The notes under the pieces are model-generated. The model was not told the DNA's origin and did not search any database. It saw only the letters and a list, made by a program, of their open reading frames with translations. A program made the translations under genes and the position numbers. This document shows, in pieces, positions 2,253 through 61,375 of a stretch of DNA of 64,000 bases. Each line of letters starts with the position of its first letter. Within the stretch, counting starts at the first letter, position 1. Source of the DNA: Clostridia bacterium (GTDB lineage: Bacteria; Bacillota; Clostridia; RUG12999); NCBI GenBank assembly GCA_017396395.1, contig JAFQMF010000018.1, forward strand, positions 25,945 to 89,944. The letters are read 5' to 3'.

Positions 2253-2981
2253 ATGAAAAAATTTTGTAATTTTAAAGAGTACATAATACTTAAAATTTGC
2301 AGTGCAATAAATATAAAATCCCAAAGTGAGGATGGTATTTTTTATGTGTGCGGAAGTGATGTTCTTCCCCCGCCTTTAGAACCCGAAGAAGAGGCAAAAC
2401 TGATTTTGAAGCTTTCAGATGACAGAGAAGATATAAGACAAATTCTTATTGAGCGAAACCTTCGTCTTGTGGTGTATATAGCACGAAAATTCGAATCCAG
2501 CGGTGTGGGAATTGAAGATTTGGTTTCCATAGGTGCTATTGGTTTGATAAAAGCTATAAACACCTTTAAAGCAGATAAAAATATTAAGCTTGCCACCTAC
2601 GCTTCCAGATGTATTGAAAATGAGATTTTAATGTTTCTTCGTAAAAATACTTTAAGAAAAAATGAGGTTTCTATTGATGAGCCTCTTAATACCGATTGGG
2701 ACGGCAACGAACTTTTACTCTCAGATGTACTGGGAACTGACAGGGATATTATAAGCAAAAATATTGAGGAGGAAACTGACCGTCAGTTATTGTATAGTGC
2801 CATATCAGGTCTTGCAAAAAGAGAGCGTACCATTATGGAGCTTCGTTTCGGACTGGCAGGAAAAACCGAAAAAACGCAAAAAGAGGTAGCAGATATGCTG
2901 GGCATTTCCCAATCCTATATTTCAAGGCTGGAAAAGCGTATTATCTCACGCCTTAAAAAAGAAATAAACAAGCTTATTTGA
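2253..2981 (+). CDS. sigE: sporulation sigma factor SigE (pro-sigma-E)
   Basis: 242 aa. N-terminal pro-sequence, then sigma-70 region 2 ([25 protein letters not shown]) and region 4 HTH ([21 protein letters not shown]). Follows spoIIGA. Confidence 0.9.
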
Positions 2982-3164
2982 AGCTTTTGAGAAAGTTTAA
3001 AAATCAAGAAAAATCTAAGCTTTATTGAGCTTTTTTACTCTTTTAAATGATGTTGACTGTAAATTGAAAGAGAAAAAACCTATACTGCAAAAAAACAGCT
3101 TTCTAAAAAGCGAAAGAAAAAAGCTGATACAAATAAAAAAACCTCAGTTTTTGGCGGAAAAATA

Positions 3165-3199: not shown

Positions 3200-3497
3200 A
3201 TATAAATGCGAAGACCGAAAACAAGTAGGTTGATTTTGATGCTACAGCAGGACTTTCCTGCTATCAGAGATTTGCCGGTTGGTGCAAGGCAATGGCTATA
3301 TATTTTAACCGAATACATTTCGAGAGCAGTGCACCGAAAAAGCGTTTTGCTTAAAGTAGGATGCAACGGGAGTTCCCGTCACAGAACAAGGGTTTGTTGG
3401 AACCTGCAAAGGTTTGCACCGTGAGATGCAAACGAACTGAGGTGGTACCACGGCATATACGCCGTCCTCTGTTAAAATCAGAGGACGGTTTTTTTAT
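3200..3497 (+). promoter_or_regulatory. T-box riboswitch leader, specifier probably UAC (Tyr)
   Basis: AGTA box 3224-3227; AGAGA bulge 3266-3270; GGTGCAA distal loop 3281-3287; specifier loop GAA-UAC-A 3311-3317; T-box sequence AACGAACTGAGGTGGTACCACGG 3431-3453; terminator GCCGTCCTCTG-ttaaaat-CAGAGGACGG plus T-run 3461-3497. Confidence 0.8.
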
Positions 3498-5914: not shown

Positions 5915-7555
5915 ATGATTATAACCGATTTACTTGAGAGAAATGCAAAGGAATATAAGGATGAGGTAGCTTTAATTGAAATTGCTCCTCAGCTTATGGA
6001 GGGTGCAAAGGTAACCTGGAAGGAATATGCACTTATTCAGCCAAATACCACCGAGCCTGTGCGTGAAGAGCTTACTTGGGGCGAATTTGATAAAAAAGCA
6101 AACCGATTTGCAAACCTTCTTTTAAGCCGTGGCATAAAAAAGGGCGATAAGGTTGCAATACTTCTTATGAACTGTCTTGAGTGGCTTCCTATTTATTTTG
6201 GCACATTAAAGGCAGGTGCTTTGGCAGTACCTCTTAATTACAGATATACCGCTCAGGAAATAAAATATTGCGTAGATTTATCCGATTCTGATGTGCTGGT
6301 TTTCGGCCCTGAATTTATAGGCAGAGTGGAAGAAATTTACGACAGAATTCCAAAGGTTAAGCAGGTATTTTATGTGGGAGAAAACTGTCCTACCTTTGCA
6401 GAAAGCTACAATAAGCTTGTAACCTATTGCTCATCTAAAGCTCCTGATATAAAAATTACACAGCAGGACGATGGTGCAATCTATTTTTCCTCAGGCACAA
6501 CAGGCTTTCCAAAAGCAATTTTACACAAGCATTTAAGTCTTATACATTCTGCCAAAACAGAGCAGGCACATCACGGTCAGAACCGTAACGACTGCTTCCT
6601 TTGTATTCCCCCTCTTTATCATACAGGGGCAAAAATGCATTGGTTTGGCTCACTTTATGCAGGTAGTAAGGCGGTGCTTTTAAAGGGCGTTAAGCCTGAA
6701 TGGATACTTCGTGCCGCATCTGAAGAAAAATGTACTATAGTGTGGCTGTTAGTACCCTGGGCACAGGATATTTTAGACAGCATTGACAGAGGGGAAATCA
6801 GTCTTGATGATTATGACCTTTCTAACTGGCGGTTAATGCATATAGGTGCTCAGCCTGTACCCCCCAGTCTTATTTCCCGTTGGAAAAAGCATTTTCCCCT
6901 TCACAGCTATGATACCAACTATGGTCTTAGTGAATCTATCGGACCAGGCTGTGTGCATCTTGGAGTGGAAAATATTCATAAAGTGGGTGCTATCGGCAAG
7001 GCAGGTTACGGCTGGGAAGTTAAAATCTGCAACGAAAATGGCGTAAGTGTGAAAAAAGGAGATGTAGGCGAGCTTGCAGTTAAAGGTCCAGGTGTTATGA
7101 CCTGTTACTATAATGACGAAAAGGCTACAAACGAGGTTCTTCGTGATGGGTGGCTGTTTACAGGAGATATGGCAAGAGAGGACGAGGACGGTTTCATTTT
7201 CCTTGTAGATAGGAAAAAGGACGTTATAATTTCAGGTGGCGAAAACCTGTATCCTGTACAGATTGAGGACTTTTTAAGAGCCTGTCCACATATTAAAGAC
7301 GTTGCTGTTATCGGTCTTCCGGATAGCCGTCTTGGAGAAATTGCGGCAGCTATAATTGAGCTTAAGCCCGAATGTATGAATATTACAGAAGAAGATATTA
7401 CGGAGTTCTGTCACGAGCTTCCTAAATATAAAAGACCACGAAAGATTATTTTTGCTGATGTTCCCAGAAATCCTACAGGCAAGATTGAAAAACCAAAGCT
7501 TCGTGAGATGTACTGCGGACAAAGCCTTGTTGCTCAGCAAAACGAGATAAATTAA
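5915..7555 (+). CDS. AMP-dependent acyl-CoA synthetase/ligase (ANL superfamily)
   Basis: 546 aa. AMP-binding motif SSGTTGFPK, YHTGA, GDMAREDEDGF, C-terminal PRNPTGKIEKPKLR. Confidence 0.8.
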   Translation: MIITDLLERNAKEYKDEVALIEIAPQLMEGAKVTWKEYALIQPNTTEPVREELTWGEFDKKANRFANLLLSRGIKKGDKVAILLMNCLEWLPIYFGTLKAGALAVPLNYRYTAQEIKYCVDLSDSDVLVFGPEFIGRVEEIYDRIPKVKQVFYVGENCPTFAESYNKLVTYCSSKAPDIKITQQDDGAIYFSSGTTGFPKAILHKHLSLIHSAKTEQAHHGQNRNDCFLCIPPLYHTGAKMHWFGSLYAGSKAVLLKGVKPEWILRAASEEKCTIVWLLVPWAQDILDSIDRGEISLDDYDLSNWRLMHIGAQPVPPSLISRWKKHFPLHSYDTNYGLSESIGPGCVHLGVENIHKVGAIGKAGYGWEVKICNENGVSVKKGDVGELAVKGPGVMTCYYNDEKATNEVLRDGWLFTGDMAREDEDGFIFLVDRKKDVIISGGENLYPVQIEDFLRACPHIKDVAVIGLPDSRLGEIAAAIIELKPECMNITEEDITEFCHELPKYKRPRKIIFADVPRNPTGKIEKPKLREMYCGQSLVAQQNEIN

Positions 7556-35426: not shown

Positions 35427-35447
35427 AAATAATAGAAAACTGAATAA

Positions 35448-35608
35448 GACCACAGGGGAGCTATATGCTGAGAGGAAACCTTAAGGTTTCGACCCTTAAC
35501 CTGATTTGGATAATGCCAACGTAGGGATGTAGTTAAAAATCTTTTAAAATAAATAAAAATGATTTATTTATACCGAAAGACCCTATTTTGTGCGTCTTTC
35601 GGTTTTTT
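35448..35608 (+). promoter_or_regulatory. TPP (THI-box) riboswitch with terminator expression platform
   Basis: CACAGGGGAGC..CTGAGAG..ACCCTTAACCTGATTTGGATAATGCCAACGTAGGGA, then terminator CCGAAAGAC-N12-GTCTTTCGG plus TTTTTT (35573-35608). Confidence 0.9.
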
Positions 35609-35633
35609 ATTTATTTTGGAAGGAGTGTTATTT

Positions 35634-36305
35634 ATGAACACACAAAAAAACACAAAAAAACTCGTTGTAACAGCAGGACTTATTGCACTTGGTACTATAC
35701 TTTCCCTGCTAAAGCTGTTTGAAATGCCCTTTGGCGGTACCATAACCGTTGCCTCTATGGTACCTATACTGCTGGTAGGCTATATTTACGGAATTAAATG
35801 GGGACTTTTTTCTTCCCTTGTGTATAGCCTTTTACAGCTTGTATGCGGAATAGCTACAGGAATAGTTTCCAGAATGTTTCTCCCTGGGGATGAACAAATG
35901 GTATTATGGCAGGCAATCTCCATATGCATTTTTGATTATATTCTTGCATATGTAGCATTGGGTTTTGGGGGAATTTTCAAAGAAAAGCTTCAAAAACCTG
36001 TTTTAGAGCTTGTACTGGGAATAATTTTTTCAACCTTCCTTTGCTGGCTGATGCATACAATTTCAGGCTATATTTTCTACGGTGCATGGGCAGAGTGGTT
36101 TTTTTCTGCAGAGGATGGGCTTAGTGTTATTCCTGCCTTTAAAGGCTTTTGCAAAATGGTTATGAATAATTTTGAAGGGAAATCTCTTGCACTTTTGTAT
36201 TCTGGCATATATAACGGAATATATATGCTTGGAGAAACAATTATTTCGGTGGCTATTGCACCTATTGTTTATATCCGTCTGAAAAAGCAAAATCTTGCTG
36301 ATTAA
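35634..36305 (+). CDS. thiT: thiamine ECF transporter S component ThiT
   Basis: ATG 35634 behind GGAAGGAG. 223-aa polytopic protein directly behind the TPP riboswitch. The ORF-track start at 35559 lies inside the riboswitch terminator. Confidence 0.8.
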   Translation: MNTQKNTKKLVVTAGLIALGTILSLLKLFEMPFGGTITVASMVPILLVGYIYGIKWGLFSSLVYSLLQLVCGIATGIVSRMFLPGDEQMVLWQAISICIFDYILAYVALGFGGIFKEKLQKPVLELVLGIIFSTFLCWLMHTISGYIFYGAWAEWFFSAEDGLSVIPAFKGFCKMVMNNFEGKSLALLYSGIYNGIYMLGETIISVAIAPIVYIRLKKQNLAD

Positions 36306-51522: not shown

Positions 51523-53220
51523 TTAATCCTTGTTTTTTGCTTTTTCCATATCCGCTTTTCTTATTTCCGTACGGCGGATTTTACCGCTGAAGGTTTTAGG
51601 AAGAGAATCAACAAACTCAATAATTCTTGGGTATTTATAAGGAGCAGTATTCTTTTTTACATAAGTCTGAAGCTCTTTTATAAGCTCCTCACTGCCTTCA
51701 TACCCTTTTTGAAGAACAATTGTTGCTTTTACATTAAATCCTCGAACAGGGTCAGGCACTCCAGTTACAGCAACCTCTAAAACTGAGGGATGCTCCATAA
51801 GCACGCTTTCAATTTCAAAGGGTCCTATACGATAGCCTGAAGATTTAATAACATCATCATTTCTTCCTACATAATGGAAAATACCCTCTTCATCACGATA
51901 TGCAGTATCTCCAGTATGATAAAATCCGTGGTGAATTGCCTTTTTAGTATCAGCATCACTGAAATTGTATCCCGTCAGTACTCCGCAAGGGTGGGTTTGT
52001 TTGCTTTCATATCTTATACAAATTTCCCCTGTTGTACCTCTGGGACAGTGATTTCCTTTTTCATCTATTACATGAACATCAAGTCCCGGAACAGGAAGTC
52101 CCATAGCACCCGGAACAGGCTTGCTCCAAGGGTAAAGGGTTGCAAGACAAACAGGTGTTTCGCTCTGACCGAAGCCTTCGTAAATCTCCAGTCCTGTTGC
52201 CTCTTTCCATTTATTAAAAATTTCAGGATTAAGTGCTTCTCCCGCTGTACAGCAGTGCTTAATGGAAGAAAGGTCATACTTACTTACATCATTTTGTAAA
52301 ATAAATCTGTACATTGTAGGTGGTACACAGAAGGTAGTAATTTTATATTTTTCCAGTTTGGATAAAATATCTGCTCCGTCAAACTTTTCAAAGTCATAAA
52401 CAAAAAGTGCAGTTTCTCCAAACCACTGTCCGTAAAATTTTCCCCACATACATTTCATCCAGCCTGAGTCGGAAATGGTAAAATGCAACCCTCCGTCAAT
52501 AACTCTGTGCCAGAAAACGCCTGTCATAATATGACCAAGAGGATATGTAAAATCGTGAGAAATAATTTTAGGATATCCTGTTGTACCTGAAGAAAAGGCA
52601 ATCATACTGGTATCTGTTGCTTTAGTGGCATCTTCCCCTACAGGTCTTTGCCAGTCATCAGAAAACTTTGAATATTCCTCCTCAAAATCTATCCAGCCTT
52701 CACACTTTTTGCCTTTTGTTACCATTTTAAGTGTAACTGTCTCGTATTTTCCTTCTGCTTCATCAAAATACTCTGTACACTGTCCGTCACCTGTAATAAT
52801 TACACATTTTACCTTAGCGGCGTTACAGCGATACTCATAATCCTTTGCTTTAAGCATATTTGTGGCAGGAATTACAACTGCCCCTATTTTATGAAGAGCT
52901 AAGGTGATAAACCAGAAAAGATAGCTTCTTTTAAGTACAAGAAGAACCCCGTCACCCTTTTTAATTCCTTTACTTTTCAGATAATTTGCCACCCTGCTGG
53001 ACTCCAGCATAAAATCACGGAAGGTAAACCGCTTTTCCTCTCCCTGGTCAGAAACCCAGAGCATAGCAAGCTTATCGGGCTTAGTAGTGCCAAGCTCGTC
53101 AATTACATCATAGGCAAAGTTAAAGTCCTGCCCATATATTAACTTGTAATTTTCCTGAGCATCCTTAAGTGATGTAAAATCATCCCGATGCTTCCCGATA
53201 TATTTTTCGTAAATAGGCAT
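51523..53220 (-). CDS. AMP-forming acyl-CoA synthetase (medium/short-chain type)
   Basis: 565 aa. AMP-binding motif SSGTTGYPK, YHTGDTAYRDEEG, C-terminal SGKIRR. Confidence 0.8.
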   Translation of the reverse strand: MPIYEKYIGKHRDDFTSLKDAQENYKLIYGQDFNFAYDVIDELGTTKPDKLAMLWVSDQGEEKRFTFRDFMLESSRVANYLKSKGIKKGDGVLLVLKRSYLFWFITLALHKIGAVVIPATNMLKAKDYEYRCNAAKVKCVIITGDGQCTEYFDEAEGKYETVTLKMVTKGKKCEGWIDFEEEYSKFSDDWQRPVGEDATKATDTSMIAFSSGTTGYPKIISHDFTYPLGHIMTGVFWHRVIDGGLHFTISDSGWMKCMWGKFYGQWFGETALFVYDFEKFDGADILSKLEKYKITTFCVPPTMYRFILQNDVSKYDLSSIKHCCTAGEALNPEIFNKWKEATGLEIYEGFGQSETPVCLATLYPWSKPVPGAMGLPVPGLDVHVIDEKGNHCPRGTTGEICIRYESKQTHPCGVLTGYNFSDADTKKAIHHGFYHTGDTAYRDEEGIFHYVGRNDDVIKSSGYRIGPFEIESVLMEHPSVLEVAVTGVPDPVRGFNVKATIVLQKGYEGSEELIKELQTYVKKNTAPYKYPRIIEFVDSLPKTFSGKIRRTEIRKADMEKAKNKD

Positions 53221-53251
53221 TGTACTGTCGTCCTTTTGTTTTTTTAGTTTT

Positions 53252-53806
53252 TTACGGTTTTATAACTACCGCAATAAATTTGGTGGGCTTATCACCAATT
53301 GCAATTTCTGCGTGAGGAAGGCTGGAATCAAAATACACACTGTCTCCTGCCTCCAGCACATAGGAAATATCTCCTATAAAAAACTGCATTTTCCCTGAAA
53401 CAACATAATCAAACTCCTGTCCTTTATGAGTATTCATAACAGGAGGCTCATCTGTAGGGTCAACTGTAACCATAAAAGGCTCAGCCATTTTATTGCGGAA
53501 GGTAAAGGCAAGGTGCTTATAGTTATATCTTGAATTTCTTTTTACTCTATAACCTTCACCTTTTTTTACTACACTGCACATTGAAAGTGTAGGGGAATCG
53601 CCTGACATAAGGTCAAGAACATCCACCCCGAAAATATCTGCCAGCTTGCATAGAAAGGAAATAGAAAAGTCCTTTTTTCCCTCTTCATATTCTTCATATT
53701 CTTCAGTTGATATTTCCATTTGATTTGCTACTTCCTCCAGTGATAAATCGCATATATCACGAAGAGAAGCAATTCTCATTGCAATATCCTTTAACTGATC
53801 TGCCAT
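53252..53806 (-). CDS. XRE-family HTH plus cupin domain transcriptional regulator
   Basis: Preferred ATG 53806 (RBS GGAG 7 nt upstream); the ORF track starts at 53848. N-terminal HTH (LSLEEVANQMEIS), C-terminal cupin (GDSVYFDSSLPH). Confidence 0.75.
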   Translation of the reverse strand: MADQLKDIAMRIASLRDICDLSLEEVANQMEISTEEYEEYEEGKKDFSISFLCKLADIFGVDVLDLMSGDSPTLSMCSVVKKGEGYRVKRNSRYNYKHLAFTFRNKMAEPFMVTVDPTDEPPVMNTHKGQEFDYVVSGKMQFFIGDISYVLEAGDSVYFDSSLPHAEIAIGDKPTKFIAVVIKP

Positions 53807-54002
53807 AAAAATCTCCATTCCGCCGCCTTGCATCGGCATAACTCGCAATTAAATTTATCTCTTATCTGCAAGGCAAAGTAATGATAAGAGATTTTAAATT
53901 ACATCGCCGTATCGCACTTTGAGTGCATAAATTTCGGCGGTGTTGTTTAATCCGCCGAAGGCTGGGTGTAAAAGGAGCTTTTACACTGTCACCTGTAAAA
54001 AA

Positions 54003-54533
54003 TCAGTAGTTATATCCAAGTTCAAGAGCACGAAGGTTAGGCTCTAAAAGATGCTGTTTCTTTGCAGGAACAAGCTTTTTCATTGTAGCCTCTAAATTTT
54101 CGTGTGGGCAAAGATTTGCTTTTTTAATGGCATGGCCTAAAATAATCATATTTGCAAGTCCTGCAAGATTTTCCTCTGAAGCAAGCTTAGTTGCAGGAAT
54201 GTAAAATGCATTAACATCTTCTCTTTCAACTTTACGGGAAATAAGAGAGCTATCTACAATTATAATACCGCCTGAAACTGTTTCATTTTCATATTTATCA
54301 AGAGAAGGTGCGTTCATTGCAATTAAAACATCAGGATTTGAAACGATAGGTGAGCCTACTTTAGTATCACTTAGTATAATACTGCAGTTAGCTGTACCAC
54401 CACGCATTTCAGGACCATAGGAAGGAAGCCAGCTAAGCTCTTTACCTTCTAAAAGACCTTCATATGCAAGGAATTTGCCTGAGAAGAGAATACCCTGTCC
54501 TCCAAAGCCTGCTATTAAAATCTGTGTTGTCAT
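54003..54533 (-). CDS. 2-oxoacid:ferredoxin oxidoreductase gamma subunit
   Basis: 176 aa. ILIAGFGGQGILFSGKFLA signature. Confidence 0.85.
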   Translation of the reverse strand: MTTQILIAGFGGQGILFSGKFLAYEGLLEGKELSWLPSYGPEMRGGTANCSIILSDTKVGSPIVSNPDVLIAMNAPSLDKYENETVSGGIIIVDSSLISRKVEREDVNAFYIPATKLASEENLAGLANMIILGHAIKKANLCPHENLEATMKKLVPAKKQHLLEPNLRALELGYNY

Positions 54534-55285
54534 TTTGCTTCTCCCTCCTCTTTGTACTTATCTTTATAAACTCCTAAGGGATAATATGGAATCATATTTT
54601 CTTCCAGCCAGCCAAGTGCCTTTGAAGGCTCTAAGCCCCAGTTTGTGGGACAAGTTGAAACAACCTCAACAAGGGAAAAGCCTTTTCCCTCTACCTGATT
54701 TTTGAATGCCTTTAAAATTGCCTTTTTAGCATTCTTAACATTTTTTACATTGTTTACAGCAACTCTTTCAAGGTATGTTGCACCATCAAGCTGTGAAAGC
54801 ATTTCACAAACCTTTACAGGATAACCTACCTTCTCAACATCACGTCCATAAGGAGAAGTCTGTGTAATCTGACCTGGTAATGTTGTGGGAGCCATCTGTC
54901 CGCCTGTCATACCGTAAATTGCATTATTTACGAAAATAACAGTAATGTTTTCTCCTCTTGCAGCAGAGTGAACTGTTTCAGCTGTTCCTATAGCTGCAAG
55001 GTCTCCGTCACCCTGATAAGTAAATACGATATTGTTAGGATCAGAGCGTTTTACGCCTGTAGCAACTGCAGGAGCACGTCCGTGAGCTGCCTGTACCATA
55101 TCAACATCAAAATAATTATATGCCATAACTGAGCAACCAACTGATGCAACACCGATTGTTCTGCCCTGAATACCCAGCTCGTCAATAGCTTCAGCAACAA
55201 GACGGTGGATTATACCATGTGTACAACCTGGGCAATAGTGCAAAGTAGCATCTGTAAGTGCTTTTGGTTTTTCAAAAACTATCAT
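54530..55285 (-). CDS. 2-oxoacid:ferredoxin oxidoreductase beta (TPP-binding) subunit
   Basis: 251 aa. CPGCTHG, GDGD...NN TPP motif (QGDGDLAAIG..FVNNAIYGMTGGQ). Confidence 0.85.
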   Translation of the reverse strand: MIVFEKPKALTDATLHYCPGCTHGIIHRLVAEAIDELGIQGRTIGVASVGCSVMAYNYFDVDMVQAAHGRAPAVATGVKRSDPNNIVFTYQGDGDLAAIGTAETVHSAARGENITVIFVNNAIYGMTGGQMAPTTLPGQITQTSPYGRDVEKVGYPVKVCEMLSQLDGATYLERVAVNNVKNVKNAKKAILKAFKNQVEGKGFSLVEVVSTCPTNWGLEPSKALGWLEENMIPYYPLGVYKDKYKEEGEAK

Positions 55286-56355
55286 TATTTTGCACCTCCA
55301 ACCTTTGTAGCTTCCATAATTTTGTTAAGTACATCCTCAGTAGTGGGAATCATACCGCCCACTCTGTTACAAAGAAGAACAGGCTTTGCACATCTTGTTG
55401 CAAGCTCAATATCTTCTACCATCTGTCCCATTGAAAGTTCAACGCTGACAAATGCATTAACTTTTTCAGAGGCTTTCAAAAGAGCCTTTTTGGGGAAGGG
55501 CCAAAGAGTGATAGGTCTTATCATACCCACCTTAATACCCTGTGCTCTTGCCTGGTCAATTGCATTTTGTGATACTCTTGATGCTACGCCGAAAGCTACA
55601 ATACAAATTTCAGCATCCTCCATCATATATTCGTCATACATAGCTTCTGTTTCTTCAATAGCTTTGTATTTTTCGTATCTTTCAAAGTTCTTAACCTCAA
55701 GCTCTTCAGGTTTTAAATAAAGAGAGTTTACAATATTGGGCTTTCTCTTAAGCTCTGTACCTGTAAGTGCCCAGGGTTTGTCGTACTGTTTGATTTCTCC
55801 CATATCAAGAGAAACAGGTTCCATCATCTGTCCCATAGTACCATCAGACAAAATCATAGCTGTCATTCTGTACTTTTCAGCAAGGTCAAAGCCTTTAAAT
55901 ACAAGACTTACCATTTCCTGAACAGAGTTGGGAGCAAGCACAAGCATATGGAAATCTCCATGTCCTGCACCTCTTGTTGCATGGAAATAATCAGACTGTG
56001 AAGGCTGAATACCACCAAGACCAGGTCCGCCTCTTTGTACGTTTACAATTAAAGCAGGGAGGTCACAGCCTGCAAGATAAGAAAGACCTTCACTCTTTAA
56101 GGATATACCTGGACTGGAGCTGGAGGTCATAACTCTTTTACCTGTAGCTGCAACACCGATAACCATATTAATAGCTGCAATTTCACTTTCCGCCTGAAGA
56201 AATACACCGCCATCAATTTTAGGCATTCTTTTGGACATATATGCGGCAACCTCAGTCTGAGGTGTGATAGGATAACCGAAATAATGACGGCAGCCTGCCA
56301 TAATAGCCGCTTCAGCAAGGGCTTCGTTGCCCTTCATTAAAACTTTATCAGACAT
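55285..56355 (-). CDS. 2-oxoacid:ferredoxin oxidoreductase alpha subunit
   Basis: 356 aa. MKGNEALAEAAIMAGC..YPITPQTE signature. Confidence 0.85.
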   Translation of the reverse strand: MSDKVLMKGNEALAEAAIMAGCRHYFGYPITPQTEVAAYMSKRMPKIDGGVFLQAESEIAAINMVIGVAATGKRVMTSSSSPGISLKSEGLSYLAGCDLPALIVNVQRGGPGLGGIQPSQSDYFHATRGAGHGDFHMLVLAPNSVQEMVSLVFKGFDLAEKYRMTAMILSDGTMGQMMEPVSLDMGEIKQYDKPWALTGTELKRKPNIVNSLYLKPEELEVKNFERYEKYKAIEETEAMYDEYMMEDAEICIVAFGVASRVSQNAIDQARAQGIKVGMIRPITLWPFPKKALLKASEKVNAFVSVELSMGQMVEDIELATRCAKPVLLCNRVGGMIPTTEDVLNKIMEATKVGGAK

Positions 56356-56377
56356 AATCTAATCACTTTCCTTTTTA

Positions 56378-56584
56378 TTATTTTTCAACAGTTATTGCAC
56401 AGTCTGGACACATTGTAGCACAAAACGCACAGCCTATACACTTGTCAGCATCTGTCACTCCTGCAGGATGATACCCCTTTGAGTTAAGGTTTTCCTCAGA
56501 AAGAGCAATAATGCCTTTGGGACAAGCACCTACGCACAGTCCGCAACCTTTACAAACTTCAGTGCTTATGGTTACTTTTGCCAT
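56378..56584 (-). CDS. 2-oxoacid:ferredoxin oxidoreductase delta subunit (2x[4Fe-4S] ferredoxin)
   Basis: [12 protein letters not shown] and [12 protein letters not shown]. Preferred ATG 56584 (RBS AAAGGAAG); the ORF track starts at 56611. Confidence 0.8.
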
Positions 56585-56618
56585 ATTCACACTTCCTTTC
56601 ATATATACCATTAATTTT

Positions 56619-57311
56619 TTACTTAAATGATTGCCTTACATACAGGGTCATACCAAAAATATTTTCTGCTTTGCCTTTTAAGCTTTCTGCAAGGCTTTTT
56701 TCCGCCCCTGTAAATTTTATTGGAAGTCCGCTTAACGCAGATACCTTTTCCGCATAGGAAAAAGATGAAATAATATGATTTTCCTTTGTTAGTACCCCTA
56801 TGTTGGAATTGTTTACAATAGCTGTAAACTTAAGTCCACAGGCAGTTTCGATTTCCTTCATTATTTCTATAGCTGCCTGGGGTGTTTCTGTTAAAGGACG
56901 ATATTTGTTAATTACAAATAACATTTCGTAATCATTTTCCTGTGCGATTTTTTCCGCAAACCTTCCAAGTGCAAGTGCACCTCTGTCATCTCCTCCCACG
57001 TCAATTACTCCCAGCATATCTTTATTATCCAATAGGGCATATGTTTCAGGAGGAATTGCAGGAAGATCTACATTGGAATTTGCAAACTCAGATGAGATAA
57101 GACGGATACTGTTATCCTTTAAAATTTCCATACTGTCCTTAGAACGGAAATAAGGGTTTACAATATCAATATCCCCAATAGATATTTCCTTTTCCGGATA
57201 CTTATTACGAAGGTAAAGAGAATAATTTACCGCAACATTTGTTTTACCGCTTCCGTAATGTCCCGCAAAAATTGTAATTCTTTTATTATCCATTAGATTG
57301 TAAGTGTCCAA
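56619..57311 (-). CDS. uncharacterised P-loop NTPase
   Basis: 230 aa. Walker [10 protein letters not shown] near the N-terminus, Walker-B-like VIDVGGDD. Overlaps the ilvE stop by 19 nt. Confidence 0.6.
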
Positions 57312-58354
57312 CCGAAGGTATCTTCAATAGTACCATTTTGAAGACCTGTAATTGTATCATACAGCTTCTGGCTTACAGGACCAATGTCTCCGCTGTTGAT
57401 AGTCATAACATCATCTTTATAACGAAGCTTTCCTACAGGGGAAATAACTGCTGCGGTACCTGTACCAAATACTTCTTCAAGAGCACCTGACTTCTGTGCT
57501 TCAATAAGCTCTTCAACGGAAATCTTTCTTTCCTCAACAGGCATACCCCAGCTTTTGCAAAGCTGAATTACAGAGTTTCTTGTAATACCGGGAAGAATAC
57601 TTCCGCTAAGCTCAGGAGTTACAATAACTCCGTTGATTTTAAAGAAGATGTTCATAGCACCAACTTCTTCAATGTACTTTCTTTCAACACCATCAAGCCA
57701 AAGCACCTGAGAATATCCGTCATCATGTGCCTTTACCTGAGCAATAAGGCTGGCAGCATAGTTACCGCCTGTTTTTGCAAAGCCCATACCACCCTTAACG
57801 GCTCTTACATAATCATCTTCAATCCAGATACCTACTGGAGCAAGTCCGCTTGCATAGTAAGCTCCTGAAGGAGAAAGAATAATAATAAATTTATAAGTCT
57901 TGGAAGGTGCAACACCTAAAAAGTCGTCAGTTGCAATAATAAAGGGTCTTATGTATAAAGATGTACCTGGTTCATTTGGAATCCAATCTCTATCCACATC
58001 AACGATAGCTTTTACAGCTTCCACAAAATACTCCTCAGGAAGATTTGGAATACAAAGTCTTTCGTTTGTTGCATTTGTTCTTTTTGCGTTCATATCGGGG
58101 CGGAAAAGTCTTGCACTGCCGTTTTCACCTCGATAAGCCTTAAGACCCTCAAACATTTCCTGTCCGTAGTGGAAAACCATACATGCAGGAGAAAGTTCAA
58201 TGTTTGCAAAAGGTACAATTCTTGCATCGTGCCAACCTTTTCCCTCAGTATAATCCATAACAAACATATGGTCTGTAAAAATTTTGCCAAAGCCTAAGTT
58301 TTTAAAATCCGGTTTTGCTTTTGGAGTAGTTGTTTTTTCAATTCTGATGTTCAT
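57293..58354 (-). CDS. ilvE: branched-chain amino acid aminotransferase
   Basis: 353 aa, class IV aminotransferase pattern (FEGLKAYR, GG.GFAKTGGNYAAS, GITR.S). Confidence 0.85.
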   Translation of the reverse strand: MNIRIEKTTTPKAKPDFKNLGFGKIFTDHMFVMDYTEGKGWHDARIVPFANIELSPACMVFHYGQEMFEGLKAYRGENGSARLFRPDMNAKRTNATNERLCIPNLPEEYFVEAVKAIVDVDRDWIPNEPGTSLYIRPFIIATDDFLGVAPSKTYKFIIILSPSGAYYASGLAPVGIWIEDDYVRAVKGGMGFAKTGGNYAASLIAQVKAHDDGYSQVLWLDGVERKYIEEVGAMNIFFKINGVIVTPELSGSILPGITRNSVIQLCKSWGMPVEERKISVEELIEAQKSGALEEVFGTGTAAVISPVGKLRYKDDVMTINSGDIGPVSQKLYDTITGLQNGTIEDTFGWTLTI

Positions 58355-58390
58355 ATTTTATTCCTCCTAATTAAACTTTAAAATATAAAA

Positions 58391-58422
58391 GGCTTATAAC
58401 CCTGCTCTGTGGGTTATAAGCC
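58391..58422 (-). terminator. leader terminator (attenuator) directly upstream of ilvE
   Basis: Minus strand: GGCTTATAACCC-acagagca-GGGTTATAAGCC followed by TTTTATATTTT, about 35 nt before the ilvE start. Confidence 0.8.
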
Positions 58423-58500
58423 ATAAAATAAACCAAGCTTATCTGCATTTTTCTTGTTTCAGAAAAAATGGCATTAACGCACAGTGCTATTCATTTTCCC

Positions 58501-58569
58501 TTAAAGTAGGTTAACGAATACCACTATGACGGCTACAACTATAAAGTTCACAGAAAGCAAACTACGCAT
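58501..58569 (-). CDS. putative 22-aa Leu/Ile/Val-rich leader peptide (MRSLLSVNFIVVAVIVVFVNLL)
   Basis: My own translation of the minus strand. ATG 58569 lies 8 nt after AAGGAG; stop TAA at 58503-58501. 13 of 22 codons are Leu/Ile/Val. Lies between the promoter and the terminator. Confidence 0.55.
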   Translation of the reverse strand: MRSLLSVNFIVVAVIVVFVNLL

Positions 58570-58600
58570 AGGTTTTTCTCCTTATATAATCATCCTTTGT

Positions 58601-58629
58601 ATTATACCACTTTCCAATATGATTGTCAA
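58601..58629 (-). promoter_or_regulatory. consensus sigma-A promoter of the ilvE leader
   Basis: Minus strand: TTGACA (58629-58624), 17 nt, TATAAT (58606-58601). Confidence 0.75.
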
Positions 58630-58991
58630 GCTATTTTTCGACTTTTTTAACTTACCAAAAGTCCGTTTCTTCACATTTTAATTATCAATTTGAAATTTAC
58701 AATTTATTAATATATAGTTCATTATTATTTCATAACTGCCTGCTATAATTTAAAATGTAAGGAAGAAAAACCAATACCTTACAAACATTTTTGCAGTGCG
58801 ACGCCTTTTAAAAAGACGCGATACTAATAGATTTTTTCATATCATACTCCCAAAAGAAAACAGCGTAGGACTACTCCCCCTTCGCTGTTTTCGCCTTTTA
58901 TTAAAATATATTTTTAAAATTGTAGATATTATAAAAAACCCTGCATATAATAAATATTGCAGGAATTTTTATAAAGGCAGGTGAAATACTT

Positions 58992-59138
58992 TTGAATATT
59001 GAACATAAAAAAGAAAATCCGCCTAAAGACAAAGAAATGTTAAGTTATAATTATCAGGAAAGTTTTGAACATATAAAAGGGGATTTGGAGGATTTTATTT
59101 TCTCTTTTTTTGATAGCAAAAAGCATTCGGAAAAATGA
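58992..59138 (+). CDS. possible 48-aa small protein (TTG start)
   Basis: TTG 58992 lies 9 nt after AGGCAGGTGA; in-frame to TGA 59136-59138; a terminator follows immediately. No homology recognised. Confidence 0.25.
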   Translation: MNIEHKKENPPKDKEMLSYNYQESFEHIKGDLEDFIFSFFDSKKHSEK

Positions 59139-59170
59139 AAAACCGATGTGAGTGTAACACATCGGTTTTT
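59138..59170. terminator. bidirectional terminator (small ORF / SGNH hydrolase gene)
   Basis: AAAAACCGATGTG-agtgtaa-CACATCGGTTTTT. Confidence 0.8.
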
Positions 59171-59174
59171 GTTT

Positions 59175-60182
59175 TTACTTTTCTAACATTTTACGAAGCA
59201 CTGGCTCTATTTTATTTGCCATTCTGTAATGACCAAGGTCGTTGGGATGAATTGTATCAGAAGTGCAAAGCTGTCTGTCTGTTTCTCCAAACAGCTCACG
59301 GCCTGGAATAAAGTAAATATTTTTATCCCCTCTGTCAACAGAATTTTTATATGTGGTATATACTACCTCTTCTCTTTTATCTGCATCGTCAATATAGTCA
59401 TAATCCACTGCACTCATAAGTAACATGGGAATATCAGGGTGAGCATCTCTTATAACTCTGAAGAAAGGCTCGTGGCTTTCCTTTAAAAGCTGTGCAGTGT
59501 TTGCATTATGGTCATATTCCATTACAAATGCAGAAAAATCAAGACTTGCAATATACTCTGCAACATCAAGCTGACCTCTTGCACTGCCTGCAAGACCAAA
59601 GTTTATAAAGTTCATATTTAATTTTTCAGAAAGCATAGAAACAAAGCAGTTGGAAACTCTGCAGGCAGAACCTGCTTCTGTAATTGAGGACCCGTAGAAA
59701 AGTACGGGCTTTTCGTATTTATAGGGAGTAGGTTCTTCCACCTGTGCATCATCATCAATGTCCACTACAACATTTTCTACAATTTCATTTCGGGGAATAA
59801 AGATTGTTACATCCTGCATTTCTCCGCTTAATTTAAAGGTCTGCTGAAATTCCTTCTGCTCGTATCCGTTAGGATATACAAGTCCCAAAAACTTCATCTG
59901 ACCGGGTGCACCCACAAAAATGTCTGCAGACTGAACTGTGTAAATAGAAAGTCCTATATCAACACTGAGGGTTTCAAGCTTAATATGTACGGTAAGATTT
60001 TTTGAATTTGTTTTAAATCTTATTCTTCCGCCACCGCATCTTCCGCCTATAATTTTATATAATTTGTATTTTTCTCTTAAGTATCCAGGCATTTTACAAA
60101 GGCTTCCGTCCTTTTCAAACATTGGCACTCCATATACTTTTAAAGGTTTATCTTTATAGCTGTATGATTTCATTTCAGACAC
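59175..60182 (-). CDS. SGNH/GDSL hydrolase family protein with N-terminal beta-rich domain
   Basis: 335 aa. Block I FYGSSIT (Ser nucleophile), block V DTIHPN. Confidence 0.7.
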   Translation of the reverse strand: MSEMKSYSYKDKPLKVYGVPMFEKDGSLCKMPGYLREKYKLYKIIGGRCGGGRIRFKTNSKNLTVHIKLETLSVDIGLSIYTVQSADIFVGAPGQMKFLGLVYPNGYEQKEFQQTFKLSGEMQDVTIFIPRNEIVENVVVDIDDDAQVEEPTPYKYEKPVLFYGSSITEAGSACRVSNCFVSMLSEKLNMNFINFGLAGSARGQLDVAEYIASLDFSAFVMEYDHNANTAQLLKESHEPFFRVIRDAHPDIPMLLMSAVDYDYIDDADKREEVVYTTYKNSVDRGDKNIYFIPGRELFGETDRQLCTSDTIHPNDLGHYRMANKIEPVLRKMLEK

Positions 60183-60480
60183 CTTCCTCTTATATAAATT
60201 CTTACACTATTATACCCCTTTTGACAGTGAAAGTCAAGGTATTAAGAGTATTTTGTAAAACTTCTTTTATTTTATCGGTTTTTTAAAAATAGATAATAAA
60301 AACGCCTTGTTTTCCTGTCGTGATTTAAGGGAATTTTGGGTACTGTTTTTATGGAAATCGTCTGTGAATTATGGTATAATAAAAAGTGTAAAAACACAAC
60401 ATATTGTGGTTTTATTTTTTGTCGATATTTATATATTGATTTATTTTACATTAATTACCATTCACCTTGGAGGAAAAATT

Positions 60481-60768
60481 ATGACCAGTAAACTTACTAC
60501 AAGCCTTATATTTGAAAAGGAAGGGTTTCGTCTTGATTATTATATTTTAACAACAGAAACTAAAATTGAGGAAAAAGCATTAAATACCTATGGAGTTAAA
60601 ATAATTCAATCTCCTTTAAACGCCTTTTCTTCCATTCCCTATATGTGCAGTCATATGACGGATATTTTCTGCACCCTTAACGAAGCGGAGGAGTTTTGTA
60701 AATTTTTAGCAGAGGGAGAAGTGGAGCCTGTTCATTTTTTTGATATACTTGATGAATATATAGCTTAA
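60481..60768 (+). CDS. hypothetical protein
   Basis: ATG 60481 behind GGAGGAAAAATT; 95 aa. The ORF-track start at 60307 runs through a promoter-like TGGTATAAT at about 60371. Confidence 0.5.
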   Translation: MTSKLTTSLIFEKEGFRLDYYILTTETKIEEKALNTYGVKIIQSPLNAFSSIPYMCSHMTDIFCTLNEAEEFCKFLAEGEVEPVHFFDILDEYIA

Positions 60769-60895
60769 ATTCCTCTGATACATACCACATTTAAGAAAAT
60801 TTATTTACAACTTTTAAAGAATTAAAAATATGTTATTGACTTTTTTCAGCCTCAGTGATAAAATTTATAAAAATAAAATATTTGAGGTGTAAAAA

Positions 60896-61375
60896 ATGAG
60901 AAAAATAATTTCTGTTACTTTAGCAATACTAATGGCTTTATCAAGTCTGATGTTATCCTCCTGCGAAACGAAAGAAAGCGGGAAATCAGAAACCTTTTCT
61001 ATTAAAATAAGCTGTGAAACAGTTCTTGAAAATAAGGATAAACTACCTGAGGAAAAAAGAGAGCTAGTCCCTGAAAATGGCATTTTTTATGAAAATGACC
61101 ATCTGGAATTTTCGCAGGGCCAGACACTTTACCAGGTTTTAAAAACATTAATGCAAAAAGAGAAGATTCATATTGATTTTAATACCTCTAACTCCTTTGG
61201 AAGTGTGTATGTAAGGGGAATTGGAAACATTTATGAGCTGGATTGCGGTAATCTTTCAGGATGGTTTATGAAAATAAACGGGGAATTTCCAAACGAAGAC
61301 TGCGGGAGCTATAAGGTTAAGCAGGGTGATATAGTAGAATTTTTATATACCTGCAATATGGGAGAGGACCTGTAA
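60896..61375 (+). CDS. DUF4430-like lipoprotein
   Basis: 159 aa. Lipobox MLSSC. C-terminal GW.....G......C..YK.K.GD...F..T pattern, typical of DUF4430 (transcobalamin-like fold). Confidence 0.6.
   Translation: MRKIISVTLAILMALSSLMLSSCETKESGKSETFSIKISCETVLENKDKLPEEKRELVPENGIFYENDHLEFSQGQTLYQVLKTLMQKEKIHIDFNTSNSFGSVYVRGIGNIYELDCGNLSGWFMKINGEFPNEDCGSYKVKQGDIVEFLYTCNMGEDL

Follow-up and report, generated by a model that had tools for sequence, protein, structure and literature searches.

The 64,000-nucleotide (nt) stretch of Clostridia bacterium DNA analysed here (the window) contains, on its minus strand, an operon that begins with ilvE and continues with the genes of a 2-oxoacid:ferredoxin oxidoreductase (VOR). 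Our subject is the leader between the promoter of this operon and ilvE, which encodes a short peptide packed with Ile, Leu and Val codons and ends in an intrinsic terminator. An initial annotation had read it as a ribosome-mediated attenuator that senses branched-chain amino acids (BCAAs). The parts on which that reading was built, namely the promoter, a Shine-Dalgarno (SD) sequence 8 nt from the ATG, a 22-codon open reading frame (ORF) with 13 Leu, Ile or Val codons, a 12-bp terminator and the ribosome-binding site (RBS) of ilvE, are all found at the places and on the strand it gave. The features of the leader are as follows.

58601–58629, minus strand: sigma-70 promoter, with the –35 element TTGACA at 58629–58624, a 17-nt spacer, TG at 58609–58608 and the –10 element TATAAT at 58606–58601
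58578–58583, minus strand: SD sequence AAGGAG of the leader ORF, 8 nt ahead of ATG 58569
58501–58569, minus strand: leader ORF of 22 codons plus stop, MRSLLSVNFIVVAVIVVFVNLL, from the start ATG at 58569 to the stop codon at 58503–58501
58513–58542, minus strand: putative regulatory codon run I V V A V I V V F V, codons 10–19; the computed antiterminator/terminator balance is lowest with the A site at codons 12–20
58513–58531, minus strand: segment 1, CGUCAUAGUGGUAUUCGUU, codons 13–19, predicted 5′ strand of the 1:2 helix (anti-antiterminator), 17 bp with 58495–58478
58478–58495, minus strand: segment 2a, AAUGAAUAGCACUGUGCG, predicted 3′ strand of the 1:2 helix, within the best-conserved block of the leader
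58467–58485, minus strand: segment 2b, ACUGUGCGUUAAUGCCAUU, predicted 5′ strand of the antiterminator, overlapping segment 2a by 8 nt
58444–58473, minus strand: spacer hairpin UGC...UUUUUCU/AGAAAAA...GCA inside the antiterminator loop, variable among relatives
58406–58425, minus strand: segment 3, UAUGGCUUAUAACCCACAGA, predicted 3′ strand of the antiterminator, spanning the 5′ arm of the terminator and the first loop bases
58380–58422, minus strand: intrinsic terminator, with the stem GGCUUAUAACCC / GGGUUAUAAGCC at 58422–58391 and the U-tract at 58390–58380, –20.3 kcal/mol

The promoter is the sole 12/12 match in a promoter scan of positions 53000–61000, carries an extended –10 TG, and is kept in homologous leaders; transcription would start near 58594. 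The share of Ile, Leu and Val in the leader ORF (13/22) compares with 23.5% across the 34 genes of the window. AUA is used for both Ile codons, and two further codons are rare, GUC at codon 14, within the run, and CUA at codon 21, just past it. The terminator hairpin begins 78 nt past the leader stop and consists of 12 bp, six of them G-C pairs, with an 8-nt loop, followed by TTTTATATTTT; the distance from the U-tract to the ATG of ilvE is 26 nt. The 215-nt leader folds at –64.2 kcal/mol (z = –5.2 relative to shuffled versions).

The element lies outside the curated Rfam leader families and outside the T-box family. A scan of 58380–58594 with Rfam release 15 (E ≤ 10) returned no family at threshold; the matches over the terminator are far below it (caiA, 25.9 bits with 55.5 needed; BTnc049, 20.2 with 81.9 needed), and Leu_leader RF00512 (19.2 bits, threshold 50) and Thr_leader RF00506 give weak matches only, elsewhere, at 58930–59028. 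The T-box model RF00230, which requires at least 93 bits, has no match in 57800–59400 even at E ≤ 10, and T-box motifs resembling UGGUACCGCG are absent from the leader. The same search does detect a T-box at 3202–3472 of the window, as well as T-boxes in relatives. Farther upstream, past a GDSL-lipase gene, a 13-bp bidirectional hairpin (AAAAACCGATGTG...CACATCGGTTTTT, 59138–59170) resembles a terminator on both strands and accounts for several weak matches to Rfam small-RNA families; it is separated from the leader promoter by some 500 nt of AT-rich, non-coding sequence.

In the minimum free energy (MFE) fold of the window leader, codons 13–19 (58531–58513) pair with 58495–58478 in a helix of 17 bp, the 1:2 helix, with the stop codon in its loop. 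When the 3′ arm of the terminator is omitted or the ORF is masked, 58485–58467 pairs instead with 58425–58406 (–16.3 kcal/mol). Segment 3 comprises the entire 5′ arm of the terminator plus the first loop bases, and this 2:3 pairing therefore excludes the terminator. The 1:2 helix in turn covers the CACUGUGCG portion of the antiterminator strand. The initial annotation had suggested folding the leader with and without its codons masked, and the mutually exclusive terminator and antiterminator it anticipated are indeed found. The particular pairings that it named did not hold up: ATAAGC/GCTTAT (58442–58436 with 58422–58416) occurs in one predicted fold and falls within the variable spacer, TTTTTCT/AGAAAAA forms a hairpin local to that spacer, and neither is conserved; the conserved antiterminator is the pairing of 58485–58467 with 58425–58406.

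The coupling of these structures to a ribosome was computed from constrained partition functions in which either terminator or antiterminator is enforced and a 29-nt ribosome footprint is masked, and is expressed as G(antiterminator) minus G(terminator). In the window, this balance is 13–15 kcal/mol with no ribosome or with the A site at codons 2–6, falls to 3.8–6.8 kcal/mol with the A site at codons 12–20, with the minimum at codon 14, and is back up to 9.3 kcal/mol with the A site at codon 22. A footprint on codons 12–20 shifts the balance by 6–9 kcal/mol, and masking of earlier codons is without effect. In these calculations the footprint-sensitive codons coincide with the run IVVAVIVVFV (codons 10–19). 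At the related locus L164, the balance of the homologous leader dips likewise, from +3.1 to –6.3 kcal/mol, which is the cleanest computed switch, and masking of the Ile/Val codons moves the balance towards the antiterminator in all four leaders computed (the window, L162, L163 and L164).

At least seven further distinct sequences, taken from independent assemblies, have a homologous leader ahead of this operon. L162, L163 and L164 were found by exact-protein look-up of the closest IlvE proteins (87, 86 and 85% identity), and L172–L178 and L181 by look-up of the closest homologs of the ParA-like protein encoded after ilvE; all of them have the gene order of the window, a homologous leader and, within it, the leader ORF, whose conservation had been named as a point on which the initial annotation could fall. 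Searches of the window leader by blastn and nhmmer against the first 160 related loci, which had been fetched with IlvE, returned no homolog, only promoter and RBS fragments, and scans with IlvE of GTDB and of metagenomes gave nothing above 85% and 81% identity, respectively. Look-ups of P0005, P0006, P0022 and P0075 led to loci that lack the leader, and that of P0124 to a contig beginning at ilvE. Locus L165 (900–1160) also has the gene order of the window and no leader; on either side of its promoter lie AATCGACAAA repeats and a AATTTTTGAAAATC that resembles a CodY box, pointing to control by a protein in place of a leader. Representative peptides are the following.

L162: MMTGFPSHNIIISVVVLFVSLI
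L163: MRFIFSFNIIVYVVVLFICLF
L164: MFAIASLNVIALAVVIFVNLIIKVVTDTTASYALL, with the aligned portion shown as MFAIASLNVIALAVVIFVNLII...
L172: MLAIASINVIALAVVIFVSLIIKVVTNTTASYALL
L181: MLFSASLNIIAYAAVIFVSLLVKVVTDTTASYALL

An SD sequence (AAGGAG or GGGAG), the start codon and the frame are kept in all homologs, and the indels, an additional AUA codon in the window and an additional AUG in L162, leave the frame intact. The run of Ile, Val, Leu and Phe persists, with Ile, Val and Leu interchanging, and the N-terminal third of the peptide drifts. The upstream regions thus behave as the initial annotation had supposed, conserving the codon run and its frame rather than the peptide. Conservation is highest in a block of the leader that is non-coding, AATAGCACTGTGCGTTATGCCATTT, equivalent to segments 2a and 2b. 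Every homolog retains the 5′ strand of the 1:2 core, GUGnUAUUyRU, whose partner in L162–L164 is AyRrAUAsCAC (s = G or C), and RNAalifold recovers this core together with the terminator.

RNAalifold also pairs the antiterminator strand with the –10 region of the promoter. Part of that strand, GUUAAUGCCAUUUU (58467–58479), is complementary over about 13 pairs, G-U pairs included, to the extended –10 region AAAGUGGUAUAAU (58601–58613), and this complementarity is kept in four homologs. We rejected the pairing, since the –10 region should not be transcribed; the complementarity is probably a coincidence of two conserved blocks.

Pairing within the three helices was counted on a hand-condensed gapless alignment of the paired strands, which was built with the structure in mind, so that the following counts lean towards the structure: 98.5% of cells are paired in the terminator (3:4), 98.5% in the antiterminator (2:3; 26–44% with the partner slid) and 98.3% in the 1:2 core. 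In the terminator, three pairs are changed on both sides and none of 500 shuffles reaches the observed value. The antiterminator has one double change, U-A to C-G in the L164 group, and 26 of 500 shuffles reach the observed value; as the changed 3′ base lies in the terminator loop, this change supports the 2:3 pairing specifically. The 1:2 core has one double change as well, G-C to A-U (167 of 500 shuffles). On this sequence comparison, the terminator is well supported, and the 1:2 and 2:3 helices are consistent with the alignment and statistically not strong.

In the L164 group, a 2-nt insertion shifts the stop codon, and the resulting ORF of 35 codons crosses segment 2 and ends just past it. 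This long ORF is found in several independent assemblies and is therefore not a sequencing error. In the model, an unstalled ribosome would here physically block the antiterminator, a simpler two-state design. By its sequences, the family is of two designs: in one the stop codon precedes segment 2, and in the other the ribosome would read through segment 2.

Around 1.5 Mb of related loci were scanned for an SD sequence and ATG opening an Ile/Leu/Val-rich ORF of 12–45 amino acids with a terminator 20–220 nt downstream. On the gene strand, matches occur almost only at heads of this operon; the opposite-strand control gave five weak matches in 1.51 Mb, none at an operon head. Two earlier scans for Ile/Leu/Val-rich ORFs had returned mostly noise, and it was the terminator requirement that gave specificity. 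The idea that ORF, hairpin and promoter-like site are a chance combination in AT-rich intergenic DNA draws some colour from the 37% G+C of the window, in which promoter-like matches number 34 with 25 expected and terminator-like matches 7 with 5.6 expected; the specificity of the scan, the fold z-score and the persistence of the arrangement in at least seven other distinct sequences from independent assemblies speak against it, and we regard it as scarcely credible.

Besides the family of the window, the scan returned a second set of leaders, family B, at L037 (before ilvE) and at L044, L047, L058 and L060 (before a leuA-like gene, where L011 has a Leu T-box); those of L052 and L053 were added by a motif search. 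Their coordinates are as follows.

L037: 6782–6895
L044: 2822–2893
L047: 2909–3013
L052: ~2897–3001
L053: ~2632–2736
L058: 2905–3009
L060: 2522–2632

Family B peptides are Ile/Leu-rich, for example MSTSAFFTAYILLLIAIIILAITKQSKNSAICRV and MASAVNFGIICIGFIIAIIIAIAVIINSNSDSAICRA. Like the family of the window, family B combines a short Ile/Leu-rich ORF, a GCUAUU...AAUAGC pairing between ORF and block, and a terminator at the head of the same operon family. Its common block, GAAUAGCGCUAUUUGUCGUG / GAATAGCGCTATTTGTCGTG, resembles GAATAGCACTGTGCGTTATG of the window family and pairs with ORF codons (CGCUAUU with AAUAGCG). In folds of L047, L053 and L058, a long 1:2 structure forms without a ribosome, and a ribosome on the Ile/Leu run gives a 10–12-bp CUAUUUGUCGUG:UGCGGCAAGUGG antiterminator. 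Unlike the window family, family B has different antiterminator and terminator sequences (UUUGUCGUG with CUGCGGCAA), its ORF usually runs through segment 2, and most members precede the leuA-like gene rather than ilvE. From these sequences, the two are probably distant homologs.

In other relatives, the same position is occupied by T-boxes, which switch genes on when the cognate tRNA is uncharged. Among the relatives, 24 T-box motifs lie on the gene strand; seven representative T-boxes score 99–132 bits against RF00230, one of which, in L037, is on the opposite strand. Twenty-one of the 24 stand first in the orthologous operon and have a readable specifier, divided equally between CUC (Leu, 7), AUC (Ile, 7) and GUA (Val, 7). 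Those of L035 and L067 lie at an operon head at the contig edge and are truncated, with no readable specifier, and that of L112 lies downstream of ilvE. The arrangements of sensor and genes are listed below (P, ParA/MinD-like P-loop protein; Fd, ferredoxin; ACS, acyl-CoA synthetase).

Leu T-box: leuA-like, AP_endonuc_2::ACS, ilvE, P, Fd, VOR, cupin, ACS (L010, L011, L017, L020, L024, L027, L031)
Val or Ile T-box: cupin, ACS, P, Fd, VOR, ilvE (L050, L051, L061, L065 and others)
Ile T-box: ilvE, P, Fd, VOR, then cupin and ACS in L028; the L072 contig ends past VOR (L028, L072)
Leader peptide: gene order as in L028 and L072 (the family of the window, L037)

L028 and L072 thus have an Ile T-box at the position of the window's leader, in the gene order of the window. 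The T-boxes at the operon heads imply that the operon is wired for induction by BCAA shortage, as the leader model predicts. The window has a T-box elsewhere (3202–3472), so the leader is a replacement and not a sign that the organism lacks T-boxes. In L013, two units stand in tandem upstream of ilvE at 7001, an Ile (AUC) T-box with cupin and ACS genes (T-box motif at 1937) and a Val (GUA) T-box with cupin and ACS genes (4573); judging from their specifiers, these may label the substrate, 2-methylbutyrate or isobutyrate, of the paralogous acyl-CoA synthetases. An incomplete search of the literature found no description of T-box or leader control of a VOR-ilvE operon.

The mechanism that we propose is as follows. 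Transcription would begin at the consensus promoter, and a ribosome would load on the 22-codon leader. With Ile-, Val- and Leu-tRNAs charged, the ribosome would reach the stop codon at 58503–58501 and depart; segment 1 (codons 13–19) would then pair with 58495–58478 and sequester CACUGUGCG of the antiterminator strand, the terminator (58422–58391 and the U-tract) would form, and transcription would stop 26 nt ahead of the ilvE start codon. When Ile or Val, and to a lesser degree Leu, is scarce, the ribosome would stall on codons 10–19 and cover segment 1. The freed 58485–58467 would pair with 58425–58406 once the latter is transcribed, the terminator would be blocked, and RNA polymerase would continue through ilvE, the ParA-like gene, the ferredoxin gene, the VOR alpha, beta and gamma genes, the gene for a cupin-helix-turn-helix protein and the acyl-CoA synthetase gene. 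What the analysis shows is the anatomy of the sequence, its conservation, the alternative pairings and the T-box equivalents in relatives; translation of the leader, stalling and a kinetic choice between structures are inferred.

At the sequence level, the element has the attributes of a leader-peptide attenuator: a short ORF near the promoter with its own SD sequence and start codon, enrichment in cognate codons, an intervening intrinsic terminator, an antiterminator that uses the 5′ arm of the terminator and is exclusive with it, and an ORF segment that pairs with the 5′ strand of the antiterminator. In L162–L164, as regards the last of these, the conserved 1:2 core merely abuts the antiterminator. 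We consider it likely that the leader is a ribosome-mediated transcription attenuator sensing BCAAs ahead of ilvE-VOR, as the initial annotation had proposed, in view of the kept frame and codon run, the conserved pairings with compensatory changes, the footprint-dependent balance and the BCAA T-boxes of relatives.

Several observations weigh against this reading. The footprint profiles of L162 and L163 are flat, and in the window the terminator stays the MFE structure even with a stalled ribosome. As the terminator is the thermodynamic optimum throughout, the switch must be kinetic, as in classical attenuators, with 2:3 forming before segment 4 is made. The leader stop lies 18 nt ahead of the antiterminator strand, so that a terminating ribosome leaves that strand unmasked, and under the model it would have to leave promptly and 1:2 to refold. 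The conserved 1:2 core of L162, L163 and L164 lies next to the 2:3 helix without overlapping it, and both helices co-exist in folds truncated before segment 4; strict classical exclusivity of 1:2 and 2:3 in every homolog was accordingly dropped for these three, and only the window has a 1:2 helix that covers CACUGUGCG, owing to its extra AUA codon. The covariation of 1:2 and 2:3 amounts to one or two evolutionary events and is not significant relative to shuffles (167/500 and 26/500). Members also differ in the details of the mechanism, since the ORF of the L164 group and of most of family B crosses segment 2. Finally, the peptide, 22 mostly hydrophobic residues of membrane-spanning length, could have a function of its own.

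The co-existence of 1:2 and 2:3 in thermodynamic folds of three homologs leaves room for another factor. The conserved block GAAUAGCACUGUGCGUUAUGCC and the terminator might then form a translation-independent switch, operated by a protein, such as a BCAA-responsive RNA-binding regulator, or through a ligand site, with the ORF dispensable. The block is conserved beyond simple pairing needs and is partly common to family B, as such a switch would allow. A dispensable ORF, however, fits poorly with an SD sequence, ATG and frame that survive in-frame indels in every member of the two families, or with codons opposite the block that always encode Ile, Val, Leu or Phe; nor does the block match an Rfam family, and the footprint effect in the window is specific to Ile/Val codons. 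We regard this explanation as unlikely.

The hydrophobic character of the peptide leads to a different explanation, in which the ORF encodes a stable small membrane peptide, possibly like a type I toxin, with its own promoter and terminator, and its place upstream of ilvE is incidental or provides basal read-through only. Residues S6, N8 and F18 are conserved across homologs, and with so strong a terminator most transcripts would end past the ORF. Against this, the 26-nt stretch between terminator and ilvE holds no other promoter-like site except a weak 9/12 match that overlaps the RBS. The non-coding block past the stop is better conserved than the peptide, whose N-terminal third is unconserved, and pairs with both ORF and terminator. 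A different, Ile/Leu-rich peptide heads the same operon in family B, T-boxes occupy the same position in relatives, and the Rfam scan found no antisense or toxin-antitoxin RNA at the locus. A membrane peptide is similarly unlikely, and attenuation by a BCAA-sensing leader peptide is the reading we retain.

The eight genes downstream of the leader would form one transcript.

57293–58354 (to 58368 with the RBS AGGAGG at 58368–58363), minus strand: ilvE, branched-chain aminotransferase (Aminotran_4, E = 2e-31), the first gene under putative leader control, ATG at 58354
56619–57293, minus strand: ParA/MinD-like P-loop protein
56378–56611, minus strand: 2x[4Fe-4S] ferredoxin
55285–56355, minus strand: VOR alpha
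54530–55285, minus strand: VOR beta
54003–54533, minus strand: VOR gamma
53252–53848, minus strand: helix-turn-helix-cupin protein
51523–53220, minus strand: AMP-forming acyl-CoA synthetase

A tblastn map with the eight proteins finds the same genes clustered in dozens of related loci, from genomes of gut and rumen samples that GTDB labels Acutalibacteraceae, Oscillospiraceae, Ruminococcus or Clostridia. The gene content and the T-box specifiers in relatives suggest that the operon makes BCAAs. The AMP-forming synthetase would convert isobutyrate, 2-methylbutyrate and isovalerate to their acyl-CoAs, VOR would carboxylate these reductively to 2-keto acids with reduced ferredoxin and CO2, and IlvE would transaminate the keto acids to Val, Ile and Leu. 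Induction by starvation is logical for an operon that would synthesise these three amino acids. Reductive carboxylation of branched-chain acids is a classical route to BCAAs in rumen anaerobes. For Methanobrevibacter ruminantium, it has been invoked for the synthesis of isoleucine from 2-methylbutyrate (PMC2812497). Three points favour the anabolic direction, from branched acids to Val, Ile and Leu, and disfavour a catabolic reading as a Stickland or branched-chain-fatty-acid-producing ilvE-VOR operon: control by a T-box or leader, AMP-forming acyl-CoA synthetases encoded in the same operon and, in relatives, a leuA-like gene in first place.

Some further features of these loci can be added. 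The ParA/MinD/NUBPL-like P-loop protein (56619–57293) is always encoded between ilvE and ferredoxin, and in relative P0137 it is fused to a 4Fe-4S ferredoxin; it may be a factor that delivers Fe-S clusters to VOR. Many relatives (L001–L009, L011:2980–6967, L058:3036–6972) encode, upstream of the ilvE-VOR cluster, a LeuA-like synthase (HMGL-like plus LeuA_dimer) and a protein of 819–840 residues in which a xylose-isomerase-like TIM barrel (AP_endonuc_2) is joined to an AMP-binding acyl-CoA synthetase. Elsewhere in the window, the T-box at 3202–3472 (plus strand, 108.5 bits) stands ahead of a sodium:solute symporter gene (PF00474; 3529–5052, plus strand). Read by eye, its specifier is UAC (Tyr), in ...CCGAA UAC A UUUCGAGAGC, which makes the symporter a candidate tyrosine transporter. 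A thiamine pyrophosphate riboswitch (35444–35545, plus strand) lies immediately ahead of the gene for a ThiT/YuaJ-type thiamine transporter (35559–36305, plus strand).

Taken together, the arrangements in relatives lead to a broader proposal, for and against which we see the balance as even: an operon of gut and rumen Oscillospirales that makes BCAAs from branched short-chain fatty acids (acyl-CoA synthetase, VOR and IlvE) would have repeatedly swapped its sensor, between Leu, Ile and Val T-boxes and two related leader families, and would have switched design within one leader family, and specifier codons or leader composition would label the substrates of the paralogous synthetases. If true, genetics could be brought to bear on the need for branched-chain volatile fatty acids that is classical for rumen bacteria. 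Induction by shortage of BCAA-tRNAs would most simply mean that Val, Ile and Leu are made from isobutyrate, 2-methylbutyrate and isovalerate, an anabolic route that bears on cross-feeding of branched-chain fatty acids in rumen and gut. The mechanism itself is of a well-known type and unsurprising; the leader family in gut Clostridia appears undescribed. It would add a conserved Ile/Val leader family in uncultured gut Oscillospirales at the position of relatives' T-boxes, so that two ways of sensing tRNA charging could be compared at one operon as it occurs in nature. The element, with its 22-residue peptide, escapes both ORF cut-offs and Rfam. As a system the family is useful for its lineage, its non-canonical operon, the T-box equivalents alongside it and its two leader designs.

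Leader-peptide attenuation is textbook knowledge in Proteobacteria, thinly documented in Firmicutes and only predicted in Clostridia. The resemblance to enterobacterial attenuators that the initial annotation had pointed out is borne out in the arrangement of helices. Like ilvL (ilvGMEDA) and ivbL (ilvBN), which are cited in PMC5794164, the window leader has a short ORF packed with Ile, Val and Leu codons (multivalent control) and containing segment 1, helices 1:2, 2:3 and 3:4 as alternatives, and an intrinsic terminator upstream of the first structural gene, and starvation would induce the operon. Unlike them, it belongs to a gut Clostridia host, has no sequence or covariance-model similarity to either, stands ahead of ilvE, VOR and acyl-CoA synthetase genes rather than the acetolactate pathway, and has its stop codon 18 nt ahead of the antiterminator strand. 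The ilvL and ivbL leaders have 32 codons, compared with 22 in the window.

The BCAA T-boxes at orthologous operons (L028, L072, L050, L011 and others) share with the leader their position, the input of charged-tRNA shortage and the output of a terminator/antiterminator choice. They differ from it in that they bind uncharged tRNA directly and need no translation, and the window leader has no T-box motifs.

Within Firmicutes, the attenuator peptide of Staphylococcus aureus ilvD, which has 26 residues, is BCAA-rich, is preceded by an SD sequence and is supported experimentally by genetics (PMC5794164), resembles the window leader in its host phylum, in its composition and in a terminator tens of nt past the stop (52 nt in S. 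aureus, 78 nt in the window), and it stands where Bacillus subtilis uses a T-box (PMC5794164). It differs in having a peptide rich in Leu and Ile with a response to Leu, a proposed antiterminator that ties up the poly-U tract and not the 5′ arm, and joint action with CodY on a canonical ilv-leu operon (PMC5794164); the window leader is known from sequence alone. For histidine, leader attenuators have been predicted in Peptostreptococcaceae, Lutispora and Erysipelotrichales (PMC9413887), and a hisS/hisZ leader peptide in bacilli has been described together with the remark that leader peptides replace T-boxes in Firmicutes (PMC2965389). These His leaders (PMC9413887, PMC2965389) resemble the window leader in occurring in Firmicutes, including Clostridia, in standing in for T-boxes or repressors, and in coming from comparative genomics only; they serve a different amino acid, in other lineages, and are unrelated in sequence. 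The view in the initial annotation that the mechanism is rarely documented in Clostridia is therefore fair without being absolute, given the His leaders predicted in Peptostreptococcaceae and Lutispora (PMC9413887) and the BCAA-rich peptide of S. aureus (PMC5794164).

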